From NCBI GenBank assembly GCA_024103275.1, contig JAGFIV010000036.1, forward strand, positions 6,279 to 70,278: DNA of 64,000 bases, given 5' to 3'. Shown here one piece after another: positions 10,035-19,401 of this stretch. Source of the DNA: Flavobacteriales bacterium. GTDB lineage: Bacteria > Bacteroidota > Bacteroidia > Flavobacteriales_F > PHOS-HE28. Below the pieces are notes generated by a model that searched no databases, was not told the DNA's origin, and worked only from the letters and a program-made list of their open reading frames with translations. Each line of letters opens with the position of its first letter. Positions within the stretch are counted from its first letter, which is position 1. Made by a program: the position numbers and the translations under genes.

Positions 10035-12695
10035 ATGCGGATATTGGACCTGAAGGCCATGCGTGGCCCCAACTATTGGTCGGTGCGGCGCAACCACCTG
10101 ATCGTGATGCGCCTCGACATCGAGGAGCTGGAGGAACGTCCCACGGACAAGATCCCGGGTTTCTTCACGCGGCTGAAGACCCTGTTGCCCTCGCTGTATT
10201 CGCACCGTTGCAGCGAGGACCACGAGGGTGGCTTCTTCGAGCGGGTGGAGCGCGGCACCTGGATGGGCCACGTGATCGAGCACATCGCCTTGGAGATCCA
10301 GACCCTGGCGGGCATGGACACCGGCTTCGGGCGCACACGCACCACCGGTGAGCACGGGATCTACAACGTGGTGTTCAGCTACATCGAGGAGGCCGTGGGC
10401 CTTTACGCGGCACGCGCCTCGGTGCGCATCGCGCAGGCCCTGGTGGACGGCACGCCCTACGACCTGGAGGAGGACATCCAGCGCATGCGGGAGCTGCGCG
10501 AGGACACCCGCCTGGGCCCCAGCACGGGTTCCATCGTGGAGGAAGCCGCCCGCCGGGGCATCCCGTACCTGCGGCTCAACGGGCAGAGCCTGGTGCAGCT
10601 GGGCCACGGGGTGCACCAGAAGCGGATCAGGGCCACCATCACCAGCAACACCAGCAACATCGGGGTGGAGATCGCCTGCGACAAGGAAGAGACCAAGGAC
10701 CTGCTGGAGAGCTACGAGATACCGGTGCCCAAGGGGCGCGTGGTGCGCACCGAGGAAGGGCTTGAGACCGCCTTGAAGGTGGTGGGCTTCCCCTGCGTGA
10801 TCAAGCCCATCGGCGGCAACCACGGGCGGGGCGCCACCATCGGCATCAAGAACTGGGAAGAGGCCAAGGCGGCCCTGGCGGTGGCCAAGGAGGTGAGCCG
10901 CAGCGCGGTGGTGGAGAAGCAGATCTTCGGCCTCGACCACAGGCTGCTGGTGATCAACCACAAGTTCATCGCCGCCGCCAAGCGCACGCCGGCCGCCGTG
11001 GTGGGCGATGGCAAGCACACCATCACCCAATTGGTGGAGGAATTGAACAAGGACCCCCGGCGGGGCTTCGGCCATGAAAAGGTGCTCACCCAGGTGGACA
11101 TCGACCAGCACACCATCGACCTGCTGGCGCGCGGCGGCATGACGCCCGACAGCATTCCGCCCGCGGGCGAGACGGTATACCTGAAGGCCACGGCCAACCT
11201 CAGCACGGGCGGTACCGCCACGGACGTCACCGAACTGGTGCACTCCTACAACATCTTCATGGCCGAGCGCATTTCGCGCATCATCGACCTGGACATCTGC
11301 GGCATCGACGTGATGACCGAGGACATCACCCGCCCGCTGAACGAGTGCGGCGCCGTGCTCGAGGTCAACGCCGCGCCGGGCTTCCGCATGCACCTGGACC
11401 CCACCGAAGGATTGGGCCGCAACGTGGCCGAGCCCGTGGTGGACATGCTGTTCCCGCCCGGCACGCCGAGCCGCATCCCGATCATCGCCATCACCGGCAC
11501 CAACGGCAAGACCACCACCACGCGCCTGGTCGCGCACATCATGCGCAGCCATGGCTACAAGGTGGGCATGACCTGCACGGACGGCGTGTACATCATGAAC
11601 CGCATGCTGATGCAGGGCGATTGCACCGGGCCGGTCAGCGCCCAGTTTGTCCTGAAGGACCCCCTGGTGGACATGGCGGTGCTGGAGACGGCCCGCGGCG
11701 GCATGATCCGCAGCGGCCTGGGCTTCGAGCATTGCGACGTGGGCATCTGCACCAACGTGGCGGCGGACCACCTTGGCCTGAAGGACATCAACACCATGGA
11801 GGAACTGGCCAACGTGAAAAGCATCGTGCCGCGCAGCGTGCGCCCCGACGGCTACGCCATCCTCAACGCCGACGATGAGCTGGTGATGGCCATGCGCAAG
11901 AAGTGCGAAAGCAAGATCGCCCTCTTCAGCCTGGACGAGACCAACCGCCTGATCCGCCAGCATTGCAAGCTGGGCGGGCTGGCGGCGGTGTATGAGAACG
12001 GCTTCATCACCATCAGCAAGGGGGAGTGGAAGCTGCGGATCGAAAAGGCGGTGAACGTGCCGCTCACCTACGGCGGCAAGGCCGTGTTCAACATCCAGAA
12101 CATCCTGCCGGCCGTCCTGGCGGCCTACGTGCAGGGGGTGAAGATCGAGGAGCTGCGCGAGGCGCTGAACACCTTCGTGCCCTCACCGGCGCAAACCCCC
12201 GGCCGCCTGAACATGTTCCAGTTCAAGAATTTCCAGGTGGTGGTGGACTATGCGCACAACCCGCACGGCTTCGAGGCCTTGGGGCGCTTCCTCAGCAAGA
12301 TCCCCGACAGCCCCAAGGTGGGCGTCATCGCCGGGGTGGGCGACCGCCGCGACGAGGATACCATCACCCTGGGGCGGCTGAGCGCAGGCATGTTCGACGA
12401 GATCATCATCCGGCAGGACCGCAACCTCAGGGGCCGCACCGATGACGAGATCATCGCCCTGATGATGCAAGGCATCCGGGAGGTGGACCCCGACAAGAAG
12501 GTCACCGTGATCAAGAAGGAGGAGGAAGCGATCCGCCATGCCATCAGCACCGCCAAGCCAGGCAGCTTCCTCACCCTGTGCAGCGACGTGGTGCCCGACG
12601 CACTCGCCCTGGTGATGAAGCTCAAGGAAGAGGATGAGCAGATCCCCTTCAGCAAGGAGGACATCCCCAACCGGAACAAGGAGCTGGTGGGGTGA
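10035..12695 (+). CDS. cphA: Cyanophycin synthetase
   Basis: 886 aa. The N-terminus MRILDLKAMRGPNYWSVRRNHLIVMRLDIEELEERP is the canonical CphA start. An ATP-grasp central domain is followed by a Mur-ligase-like C-terminal domain (GTNGKTTTTRL P-loop). The stop codon overlaps the ATG of the downstream Rhs-CT ORF. Confidence 0.95.
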   Translation: MRILDLKAMRGPNYWSVRRNHLIVMRLDIEELEERPTDKIPGFFTRLKTLLPSLYSHRCSEDHEGGFFERVERGTWMGHVIEHIALEIQTLAGMDTGFGRTRTTGEHGIYNVVFSYIEEAVGLYAARASVRIAQALVDGTPYDLEEDIQRMRELREDTRLGPSTGSIVEEAARRGIPYLRLNGQSLVQLGHGVHQKRIRATITSNTSNIGVEIACDKEETKDLLESYEIPVPKGRVVRTEEGLETALKVVGFPCVIKPIGGNHGRGATIGIKNWEEAKAALAVAKEVSRSAVVEKQIFGLDHRLLVINHKFIAAAKRTPAAVVGDGKHTITQLVEELNKDPRRGFGHEKVLTQVDIDQHTIDLLARGGMTPDSIPPAGETVYLKATANLSTGGTATDVTELVHSYNIFMAERISRIIDLDICGIDVMTEDITRPLNECGAVLEVNAAPGFRMHLDPTEGLGRNVAEPVVDMLFPPGTPSRIPIIAITGTNGKTTTTRLVAHIMRSHGYKVGMTCTDGVYIMNRMLMQGDCTGPVSAQFVLKDPLVDMAVLETARGGMIRSGLGFEHCDVGICTNVAADHLGLKDINTMEELANVKSIVPRSVRPDGYAILNADDELVMAMRKKCESKIALFSLDETNRLIRQHCKLGGLAAVYENGFITISKGEWKLRIEKAVNVPLTYGGKAVFNIQNILPAVLAAYVQGVKIEELREALNTFVPSPAQTPGRLNMFQFKNFQVVVDYAHNPHGFEALGRFLSKIPDSPKVGVIAGVGDRRDEDTITLGRLSAGMFDEIIIRQDRNLRGRTDDEIIALMMQGIREVDPDKKVTVIKKEEEAIRHAISTAKPGSFLTLCSDVVPDALALVMKLKEEDEQIPFSKEDIPNRNKELVG

Positions 12696-12697
12696 TG
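12646..12697. repeat. Direct repeat copy 1 (last 52 nt of cphA) - putative attL of integrative island
   Basis: ccttcagcaaggaggacatccccaaccggaacaaggagctggtggggtgatg is repeated at 19836-19887 with 2 mismatches. Confidence 0.75.
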
Positions 12698-18769: not shown

Positions 18770-19401
18770 AAATAGCGATTAATTATTTATTTGTTATACT
18801 ATCTATATTGCTATTTGCTTTTTTGATTAGTGGCTGCAATTATTGCAAATGCGATGAGACAGGAGGGATTTCTGGTTTTTATATCTGTGATAGAACGAAT
18901 GATAATAATGCGGAGTATATTTGGATATTTGGGGATAATACATATGTTCACATGTTCGATTATGATACGATTAGATATATAAATTCTGATACTTGGTCTA
19001 TTAGGCGTGATCACATTGAGTTATTTATAGCAAATAACTGGGTGGCTCCATGTGAATATGGAAGAGATGCTTGTTATAAAAGGATGGAGTACGTGAATAG
19101 CAATAATTACAACGAGTACCTAGGGTCTATGGCGCAGCTTAGCTATGGGTGCCTCGTTGGACTGGACGACTCTTGCTATTTTAGACTGATATCCCAGTTT
19201 AATCCTATGTTCAATTATAAAAAGATACACAATTCAGAATATAGGGATTATTCCTTGTTTATGGATGCCTTTTTCTTTAGTAAACGAGATTCGGTAATGT
19301 TTTCCGAAATAAATGAAACCCTCGTTATTCCTCTGACTAGCGCGGGCGCCGCGAGTGGGTCCTCTCCCAACCCGCGCTCGGGTGTGCGCGGGTCCAGATG
19401 A
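18766..19401 (+). CDS. Putative immunity protein for Rhs-CT toxin 2 (lipoprotein)
   Basis: The ATG overlaps the toxin stop (ATGA). Lipobox LISGCN. AT-rich and Cys/Tyr/Asn-rich. The 3' ~30 codons lie in a GC-rich repeat element. Confidence 0.55.
   Translation: MKIAINYLFVILSILLFAFLISGCNYCKCDETGGISGFYICDRTNDNNAEYIWIFGDNTYVHMFDYDTIRYINSDTWSIRRDHIELFIANNWVAPCEYGRDACYKRMEYVNSNNYNEYLGSMAQLSYGCLVGLDDSCYFRLISQFNPMFNYKKIHNSEYRDYSLFMDAFFFSKRDSVMFSEINETLVIPLTSAGAASGSSPNPRSGVRGSR

Follow-up and report, generated by a model that had tools for sequence, protein, structure and literature searches.

Two Rhs core-end cassettes in a Flavobacteriales genome as putative arms of a degenerate Rhs-targeting integrative element, and a candidate large structured RNA associated with it

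Integrative elements and prophages that insert in the 3′ ends of genes, with an attB in a tRNA gene or a protein gene, carry a replacement 3′ end. The acquisition of polymorphic C-terminal toxin domains (here "tips") by Rhs proteins, and the arrays of orphan tips, have so far mostly been explained by homologous recombination. For orphan Rhs-CT and CdiA-CT modules, a model of C-terminal displacement (Jackson 2009) and further work (Koskiniemi 2013) are cited in PMC6421346, and displaced tips have been described in Ornithobacterium hominis (PMC6421346). In the rAID-1 systems of Bacteroidales a single 5′ XerD-like recombinase gene precedes an array made up of immunity genes alone (Ross et al. 2019, bioRxiv 10.1101/471110; PMC12247911), and such systems are recognized by a recombinase at least 44% identical to BF9343_RS08045 and by at least two co-oriented downstream genes with a GC content of 41% or less (Ross et al. 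2019). XerC/D recombinases adjoining polyimmunity loci were noted by Zhang 2012, and integrase-like genes were found repeatedly beside Rhs loci of the bee-gut bacteria Snodgrassella and Gilliamella by Steele et al. 2017 (PMC5727410), who speculated on Rhs capture. Here we analyse a 64-kb stretch of DNA from a Flavobacteriales bacterium (GCA_024103275.1, contig JAGFIV010000036.1, positions 6,279 to 70,278), termed the window, in which two short Rhs cassettes, each with a tip and an immunity-like gene, enclose a tyrosine recombinase gene; statements that this genome holds no other copy of a feature are limited to these 64 kb.

Our preferred explanation, to which we give a probability of about 0.68, is that a degenerate copy of a Bacteroidota-wide, Rhs-targeting, tip-swapping integrative element has these cassettes as its two arms, and most of the remaining doubt concerns catalysis and the history of the window copy. 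What appears to be new is the combination of an integrative element with a polymorphic-toxin cassette, together with an apparently new large RNA, termed X. No description of an element targeting the Rhs core end, or of RNA X, was found in the literature, in a search that was incomplete, and a prior description is possible.

A recombinase unit between Rhs core-end cassettes and its crossover site

The names recA and recB are used here for the two tyrosine recombinase genes of the element. Alignment of recB, the gene lying between the window cassettes, served to gather 76 genome loci, in addition to 39 metagenome loci, and four HMMs (hidden Markov models) of our own, for the Rhs core end, the HTH protein, ORF6N and the recombinase, were mapped on these loci, which are cited below by handles such as L014. 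A recurrent unit emerged, in which a core-end cassette (Rhs core end, tip and, optionally, an immunity gene) is followed by a reverse-oriented HTH gene, a gene measuring about 1.6 kb, recA and recB, and then, after 0.7-2.8 kb, by the next core-end cassette. Across the 90 recombinase units of the 76 genome loci, with denominators restricted to units with enough sequence, a recA partner was present in 86 of 90, the reverse-strand HTH gene upstream in 63 of 66, and a core-end ORF (open reading frame) within 4 kb downstream in 41 of 44. A core-end ORF also lies within 6 kb upstream in 43 of 46, and 22 of these 43 are long Rhs genes. The 1.6-kb gene encodes a P-loop protein of about 510-580 aa (554 aa in L017, 582 aa in L014) that matches no Pfam family. 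The units occur in Flavobacteriales, Chitinophagales, Cytophagales (Fulvivirga), Saprospiraceae and Bacteroidales (Draconibacterium), and the cultured isolates carrying them include Salegentibacter sp. R32 (contig RXOM01000065), Flavivirga aquatica SK-16 and Aquimarina spp. In one locus (L014) the order recombinase, ORF6N, GC-rich ORF and Rhs tip occurs twice.

The position at which these units join their rhs genes is narrowly defined. Homology between the core end of the full-length rhs gene and that of the short cassette begins +9 to +24 nt from the start of the core-end model, at the codons for (D/G)Y(Y/E)P(F/Y/G)G, and runs, depending on the locus, for 36-472 nt at 72%-100% identity. Four genomes (L046, L068, L091 and L089) contain tandem copies of 7.0-7.5 kb that are 99.2-100% identical. 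On the left they begin with the opening base of the core-end block within the full-length rhs gene. On the right they extend 257 nt into the cassette that follows in L046, and similarly in L091, and in L068 and L089 they continue as far as the locus itself; the long Rhs protein and the next unit have 100% identical tips. Tandem arrays regenerate an attP-like junction, and therefore a three-way comparison of attL, internal junction and attR pins the exchange, limiting it to about 5 nt: GGCGG (P-G-G) in L046 and TTCGG (P-F-G) in L091. The predicted att region is centred on GAYTAYTAYCCNTTYGG. In six of eight relatives examined (L017, L019, L030, L032, L053 and L070) the attL and attR blocks are 72-76% identical, with longest exact runs of 15-18 nt, lengths that fall below the usual need of RecA-dependent exchange. 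As the site of about 5 nt is fixed although the blocks are this diverged, the exchange in the relatives appears to be site-specific rather than homologous. A different boundary was observed in a Draconibacterium MAG (metagenome-assembled genome) whose recombinase is 33% identical (L089:4519 and 13478): it falls at another conserved Rhs motif, W|YDYGARFYDP, which suggests retargeting within the core end.

These observations suggest the following model. The complete element would be a circle of about 7 kb comprising the core-end block, a tip, its immunity gene, the HTH repressor gene on the opposite strand, the P-loop protein gene, recA and recB, to which some lineages would have added ORF6N, RNA X and a short leader ORF. 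Through its recombinases, the presumed catalysts, it would enter a resident rhs gene by site-specific recombination at the (D/G)Y(Y/E)P(F/Y/G)G codons with which the core end begins, such that its tip and immunity gene would be fused in frame to the resident Rhs shell, yielding a new weapon and antidote. The old tip and immunity gene would be pushed downstream behind the element, where the old immunity protein might still protect against kin, and repeated insertions would build arrays of orphan tips. The tip adjoining attL would thus be the cargo of the element, and the tip behind recB the displaced resident one. If true, this would provide a concrete mechanism for fast turnover of weapons and antidotes across the phylum, explain why orphan cassettes have a fixed 5′ boundary, why the GC content of tips is foreign and why integrases are frequent beside Rhs loci, and define recombinases with a specified coding-sequence target.

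A further arrangement of Rhs tips was seen in a Bacteroidetes bacterium (GCA_016708205.1; L016:9142-19637), where a different integrase of 282 aa stands directly upstream of one Rhs-tip/immunity pair on the forward strand, followed by five Rhs-tip cassettes on the reverse strand, all starting about 10 aa before YPFGMLTPGRNWS. By analogy the layout is shufflon-like, and tips might be switched there by inversion.

The window copy and the explanations for it

The window has a GC content of about 64%, and its cassette region contains three low-GC islands. Both toxin ORFs are present as first annotated. Cassette 1 (12695..13627 on the + strand; ORF 12692/12695..13627, 310-311 aa) consists of an Rhs core end closing with DPNGM and a Toxin-JAB1 tip; cassette 2 (17678..18769, +, 363 aa) consists of a leader, a core end closing with DPNGL and a tip of unassigned fold, and its probable start, judging from relatives, is the ATG at 17711 (MPQGQGHIAN...). 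The two share a 121-nt core-end block, at 12728..12848 and 17801..17921, with 90% identity overall, 94% over 103 nt inside it and a longest exact run of 67 nt; its translation reads GYEPFG..LPGRNYSSDAYRFGFQGQIKDDEVYG. The arms turn identical at GGGTATGAACCCTTCGGG (GYEPFG), that is at 12728 and 17801, which matches the (D/G)Y(Y/E)P(F/Y/G)G codons where the crossover lies in the relatives. The N-terminal parts of the two proteins are 61% identical over 95 aa (tblastn E 2e-29). TIGR03696 (Rhs_assc_core) matches cassette 1 with 54.1 bits, above its cutoff of 32.5, and cassette 2 with 29.4 bits (E 9e-7), slightly below it. The DPxG(hydrophobic) autoproteolysis motif marks the boundary of core and tip in both translations. 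The shared segment that the first-pass annotation had described as about 45 aa long is borne out, and so is the Rhs-core assignment, but the near-identical part measures about 40 aa and does not reach the DPNG motifs, which lie about 40 aa further in sequence that has already diverged. Upstream of the block, cassette 1 retains some 10 residues that are true Rhs body, as comparison with L013 indicates; there it is cut, and its left flank is the cyanophycin synthetase gene cphA instead of Rhs body. We interpret cassette 1 as the probable left, attL-like arm and cassette 2 as the probable right, attR-like and displaced arm.

As had been noted at the outset, the cassettes then diverge into low-GC C-terminal domains, the GC content dropping from about 0.65 to 0.33-0.45 across both tips and the ORFs downstream. 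The first tip, in which an HSHP...SKD stretch can be read, had been called weakly JAMM-like, and it indeed matches PF15659 Toxin-JAB1 (aa 169-238 of cassette 1; E 9e-12, 45.7 bits against a cutoff of 21). An exhaustive HMMER search gave 316 remote relatives of it, all C-terminal, and at least 12 among the 150 matches listed are on proteins of 1090-3110 aa. The second tip matches no family in Pfam or NCBIfam; nine homologues are 51-58% identical, two of which (P0002 and P0007) have a longer Rhs body upstream. An AlphaFold model of this tip from 10 sequences was too poor for use (predicted local distance difference test score, pLDDT, of 49.6). Cassette 2 has 165 homologues, of which the best 120, from Flavobacteriales and other Bacteroidetes MAGs, are all no longer than 604 aa, a shortness that may partly be due to fragmented assemblies; several share a contig with close recB homologues. 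A tblastn search of the 64 kb gave no further Rhs-like or YD-repeat sequence, in agreement with the annotated lack of a full-length rhs gene. The long N-terminal YD-repeat shell and delivery domain that relatives possess (for example the Rhs protein of at least 1911 aa in L017) are missing from the window ORFs of 310 and 363 aa, and it is improbable that a core-end fragment lacking this shell could be delivered as a toxin.

Each tip gene is followed on the + strand by a low-GC, immunity-like ORF (13624..14121 and 18766..19401) whose start overlaps the toxin stop as ATGA (13624-13627 and 18766-18769), as first reported. The description of both as lipoproteins holds for the second, with its canonical lipobox LISGC; the N-terminus of the first resembles a signal peptide, and its AISC is less canonical. 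No Pfam or NCBIfam family matches either of them. The last 25 or so codons of the first ORF extend into a GC-rich repeat, and the end of the second likewise lies in repeats; as these C-terminal residues are read from the repeats, the true ends of both ORFs are uncertain.

The roughly 4 kb separating the cassettes hold an HTH gene, a truncated HTH gene, recB, an ORF6N gene and about 1 kb of conserved non-coding DNA. The cI/RstR-like HTH repressor gene (14180..14545, -; HTH_3 E 8.5e-15, NF041951 RstR 82 bits) is the conserved left-hand gene of the recombinase module. At the place that the P-loop gene and recA occupy in relatives, two GC-rich repeat copies (14578-14692 and 14888-14981, together spanning 14578..14981) enclose the truncated second, XRE-type HTH gene (14694..14880, -). 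The product of recB (14964..15986, +) is a XerD-like tyrosine recombinase with Phage_integrase and SAM_1 matches; its relatives measure about 306 aa, and the first 31 or so codons of the window gene come from repeat-region sequence that has replaced the native start. There are 849 recB homologues, and IMG/VR yielded neither an exact-motif match nor a relative of recB. At least 24 short contigs encode exactly the window protein, one of them seen in at least 20 samples, and the island is also present on an ENA contig; for these reasons we regard the arrangement as real and not an artefact of assembly. The phage anti-repressor-like ORF6N gene (16046..16615, +; PF10543 E 7e-34, phrog_4792 anti-repressor E 2e-25) stands at the same position in L014, L047, L049, L055 and others. 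Behind it lies about 1 kb of 70% GC (16616-17677, +) leading to cassette 2, whose leader (MPQGQGHIANGVFAPEGALQKVGSA...) is kept in L014, L017, L097 and L104 and is element sequence, not Rhs. Altogether, the window recombinase, ORF6N, X and leader match L014, L017, L093-L097 and L104. Of the order HTH, P-loop gene, recA and recB between two core-end cassettes the window retains only the reverse-strand HTH gene and recB, and because the P-loop gene and recA are missing, we class it as a degenerate derivative, not a complete member. The element would correspond to about 12728-17800, between the block copies, with recA and the P-loop gene presumably lost and GC-rich repeats and an HTH fragment in their place.

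The array would also have been cut off from its rhs gene, lying in a 7.1-kb insertion at the 3′ end of cphA (10035..12695, +; Pfam Cyanophycin_syn and Mur_ligase on the identical gene in L011). A 55-nt direct repeat, 95-96% identical between copies (96% over 52 nt), bounds this segment: copy 1 (12646..12700) comprises the last 50 nt of cphA and 'TGATGCGG', including the stop and the ATG of cassette 1, and copy 2 (19836..19890) is a duplicate cphA 3′ end whose ATG opens a meaningless 28-codon ORF overlapping a PIN gene. The cphA stop and the cassette 1 ATG do overlap as TGATG (12693-12697), as the first-pass annotation had pointed out, with the suggestion of translational coupling. Since this GTGATG belongs to the duplicated cphA 3′ segment, with the Rhs fragment starting 5 nt after the ATG, the coupling is better seen as a scar of the rearrangement, a by-product of it; judging from the sequence, co-transcription with cphA and some expression of the first immunity ORF are possible. 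Positions 12701-19835 might be a Campbell-type insertion into the cphA terminus, or copy 2 and the PIN pair might together have been taken up as a cassette flanked by repeats. Neither an empty cphA site nor strain variants were found, and exact look-ups of the PIN protein and a 646-aa neighbour returned nothing; Logan contigs end at the repeats. On the other side of cphA, a divergent cyanophycinase gene (Peptidase_S51; 8997-9872, -) completes an ordinary storage-polymer locus, which is merely the insertion site of the island.

Several repeat families punctuate this island. The 151-nt direct repeat D4 (19681-19831 and 20816-20966, 93% identity) contains the reverse complement of part of a GC-rich repeat; one copy directly precedes the duplicate cphA end, and the other precedes a third low-GC ORF (21182..21694, +; 170 aa). 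The latter lacks a signal peptide, is flanked by D4 and GC-rich repeats, matches no Pfam or NCBIfam family, and may be an immunity-only orphan cassette. GC-rich cassette-end repeats at 19366..19625 include the hairpins ACCCGCGCTCGGGT and CCGGCGCTCG...CGAGTGCCCGG, which show almost no covariation, and further copies lie at 14088-14135, 14578-14692, 14888-14981, 20655-20765 and 21701-21927. An identity as genome-wide repetitive extragenic palindromic (REP) elements was rejected, as all copies in the 64 kb fall within 14088-21927; they may be attC-like sites, terminators or something else. Homologues of these repeats comprise five copies in L014, each after small ORFs downstream of the last tip, and one in L036. 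A PIN_3 toxin and DUF6364 antitoxin-like pair (19916-20329 and 20326-20583, -) is convergent with the array, and the only Bacteroidetes -7 motif TAnnTTTG of the region (TAACTTTG) lies just upstream of this pair, at 20596; a sigma-70 scan of the region gave nothing useful, that consensus not being applicable to Bacteroidota. In another Flavobacteriales bacterium (GCA_026129465.1; L013:5062-12330) we observed a tandem array of three Rhs-tip/immunity cassettes that each retain about 190 aa of Rhs body and share 300-nt repeats of 99% identity. The motif CCCCGCTCCCGC.A.T.TTCC of the GC-rich repeats also occurs between them, one full reverse-strand HTH gene follows the first cassette and shorter HTH-like matches follow the other two, and there is no recombinase within 10 kb. 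This array adjoins a cyanophycinase-like Peptidase_S51 gene, echoing the cphA setting of the window.

Several facts weigh against an integrative element as the origin of the window cassettes. The support is comparative throughout, neither an excision product nor an empty site nor activity having been seen. The window copy is without recA, the P-loop gene and a full-length rhs gene, and may be inert. It joins cphA at 12700/12701, away from the PFG site, and our model explains neither this junction nor the 55-nt duplication. The leader carries stop codons in many low-GC relatives (for example L046), so that expression of displaced tips is not general. The first tip domain matched itself alone in a word-indexed search. 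Where two blocks are already present, unequal crossing-over would in principle be enough to produce tandem units. Finally, the block in the window is high in GC, 90-94% identical in both arms and includes the 67-nt exact run, and the GC drop lies on its 3′ side (about 12900 and 17930), not at the PFG site; on account of this, the block has probably been homogenised here, or tips exchanged inside it, and the window tips may have been swapped by homologous recombination or gene conversion within the block.

The same features of the block could be taken to favour classical orphan Rhs-CT/immunity modules that undergo RecA-dependent exchange through it, with the recombinase as an unrelated passenger, and the recombinase-free tandem cassettes of the related, high-GC locus L013 and the displaced tips reported in Ornithobacterium hominis, a Flavobacteriaceae species, fit with this as well. 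We nevertheless find such an origin unlikely: recombinase, HTH gene and core end are linked across the phylum in 41/44, 63/66 and 43/46 units, far from the pattern of a passenger, the crossover occurs at PFG even with exact runs of 15-18 nt, and the leader before cassette 2 belongs to the element and not to Rhs. Hence, of the initial view of the cassettes as orphan modules, their detachment from a full-length rhs gene stands, but they are not free-standing, since they flank a recombinase module that is conserved with Rhs core-end cassettes; likewise, the 67-nt run could support the homologous exchange then proposed, but the relatives show a defined site of about 5 nt. That unit boundaries lie in the Rhs block, and not in the repeats, also speaks against a rAID-like or polyimmunity island, in which the array would collect immunity genes, the toxin fragments would be dead and the GC-rich repeats would be the recombination sites. 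The XerD-like recombinase, co-oriented low-GC cassettes and island-restricted intergenic repeats do match hallmarks of rAID-1; in L014, members of the same repeat family divide five small ORFs that follow the last Rhs tip, the ORF at 21182..21694 is of immunity size and lies between repeats, and XerC/D recombinases are on record beside polyimmunity loci (Zhang 2012). The units, however, carry a complete core-end and toxin ORF and usually two recombinases, about half of their upstream neighbours are intact long Rhs genes, and the authors of rAID-1 place all of its recombinase relatives with more than 50% identity in Bacteroidales (Ross et al. 2019); we regard this account as quite improbable.

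The polarity of the unit could also be read the other way round, such that the element runs from the HTH gene through recB, leader, core end and tip to immunity gene, inserts intergenically downstream of an rhs-tip/immunity pair and adds silent spare tips. L072 and L075 do show this gene order, in a permuted copy that has no Rhs upstream (HTH, P-loop, recA, recB, ..., core end, tip, immunity); L074, from the same MAG, has a copy linked to rhs, and we count this free permutation among the support for the preferred element as well. Arrays would show the same order under either polarity. The 99-100% tandem duplications, on the other hand, begin at the core-end block inside the full-length rhs gene and include the fused tip, and insertion downstream would consequently require that native and cargo tip be the same in four unrelated genomes; moreover, there is no conserved intergenic target behind the polymorphic immunity genes. 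We regard this polarity as very improbable, and retain insertion within the rhs core end as the preferred reading. For the window it would mean that the cassettes are a decayed remnant and the cphA coupling a scar, and that the copy most likely serves now, if anything, as a reservoir of immunity genes and tips.

A candidate structured RNA behind the recombinase

The conserved non-coding DNA between ORF6N and the leader of cassette 2 contains X (16643..17360 for the covarying core, + strand, with weaker conservation to about 17660), at least 720 nt long and about 70% GC. RNAalifold, applied to nine sequences, gave 184 pairs in 33 helices including long-range closures, with compensatory double changes in 55 pairs, compared with 4-11 when the partners were slid. 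Paired cells amount to 94.8%, as against 86.5% in column shuffles and 36-44% with slid partners, and the covariation score is 0.245 versus 0.100 in controls, the observed score being reached by 0 of 500 shuffles; the structure was derived from the same alignment that was used for covariation, and the sequences are related. The invariant G-U pairs and many G-C/G-U alternations place X on the + strand. There are nine distinct homologues, a covariance model (R1) detects X in 11 loci, and all copies follow recB or ORF6N immediately on the 3′ side, in the same orientation. R1 does not detect X in the low-GC relatives, X being confined to the high-GC subset. We accordingly treat X as a candidate structured RNA by prediction.

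Gene callers place ORFs of 245 aa and 331 aa here, but a protein-coding nature was rejected: the translations are Arg/Pro/Ser-rich junk with no kept frame, and the X copies of the window and L014 are about 80% identical in DNA with indels that are not multiples of 3, whereas the corresponding recombinases are 36% identical in protein. A role as guide RNA for the att site was likewise discarded, the longest matches or complements to the junction region being no better than in shuffles. Rfam 15 gave no match at E up to 0.1 over 12000-24000 of the window, nor at E up to 1 over X in L017, L096 and L028; IMG/VR held neither an exact-motif match nor a relative of X, and the only tRNA of the window is at 55241. 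Between X and the leader of L017 a small conserved ORF of about 68 aa (MEPMDELTKHFTRFRSGYVLSQAILEDYCEVVARIE...; L017:12134-12337) was observed. L028 and L036 have counterparts of this ORF, the window has none, and it matches nothing in Pfam.

X is one of very few bacterial RNAs above 700 nt with strong covariation and without a family, and its strict placement behind a tyrosine recombinase makes its function experimentally approachable. A linked proposal would join two parts: a toxin-swapping element of Bacteroidota whose paired recombinases act at P-F/Y/G-G, arm an rhs shell and archive the old tip, and a high-GC Flavobacteriales branch that depends on X, co-transcribed, for control of recombination or expression of the displaced cassette. 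Taken together these two parts make a tentative and rather doubtful proposition; if it is true, X would be a new class of large functional RNA tied to a tyrosine recombinase.

Comparison with known systems

The integrase-like genes of the bee gut (Steele et al. 2017) are comparable in that they stand repeatedly beside Rhs loci; they belong to another phylum, Proteobacteria, and no site, unit or mechanism was defined for them. Displaced Rhs-CT and CdiA-CT modules share with the present system the core-end fragment, polymorphic tip and cognate immunity gene, the arrays downstream of a full-length rhs gene (here in the relatives) and a block that could permit re-attachment. What sets the present system apart is the conserved recombinase module between the tips, the fixed site of about 5 nt, blocks of as little as 72-80% identity and, in the window, the lack of a full-length rhs gene.

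With rAID-1 the system has in common its occurrence in Bacteroidota, a XerD-like recombinase, low-GC co-oriented cassettes, conserved intergenic repeats and the keeping of immunity genes without a deliverable toxin, but each unit here has a repressor and a P-loop gene besides its two recombinases, the tips are full, and insertion would take place within rhs. The recB homologues listed are from Flavobacteriales and other non-Bacteroidales taxa. With regard to the low-GC rule of rAID-1, the second tip with its immunity ORF (GC 0.33-0.44) and the ORF at 21182..21694 (0.38-0.43) are co-oriented, and ORF6N (about 0.60), the RNA region and the reverse-strand PIN pair intervene. Repeats are present as in rAID-1, but the units hold complete core-end and toxin ORFs instead of immunity-only arrays. 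Integrons are defined by an IntI-type integrase with adjacent attI and Pc and by promoterless cassettes that each close with an attC hairpin. The cassettes here end in hairpin-containing repeats almost without covariation, and the unit boundaries of the relatives lie in the Rhs block.

Among large RNAs, X is comparable to OLE, GOLLD and ROOL, which are likewise several hundred nucleotides long, have multi-domain structures backed by covariation and reside on mobile DNA, GOLLD and ROOL often being borne by phages. It differs from them in lacking an Rfam 15 match, in its GC content of about 70%, and in being seen only directly 3′ of a tyrosine recombinase in the putative Rhs-targeting element of high-GC Flavobacteriales. 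The element as a whole can be compared with those that insert in the 3′ ends of genes, to which it is similar in its tyrosine integrase adjoining the att site, its pair of repressor and anti-repressor, its tandem multimers, and attL and attR that share the 3′ sequence of the target. Unlike in those elements, the replacement would be a different toxin domain with its own immunity gene, such that the function of the target changes with each insertion, and the target itself is a paralogous, polymorphic family.

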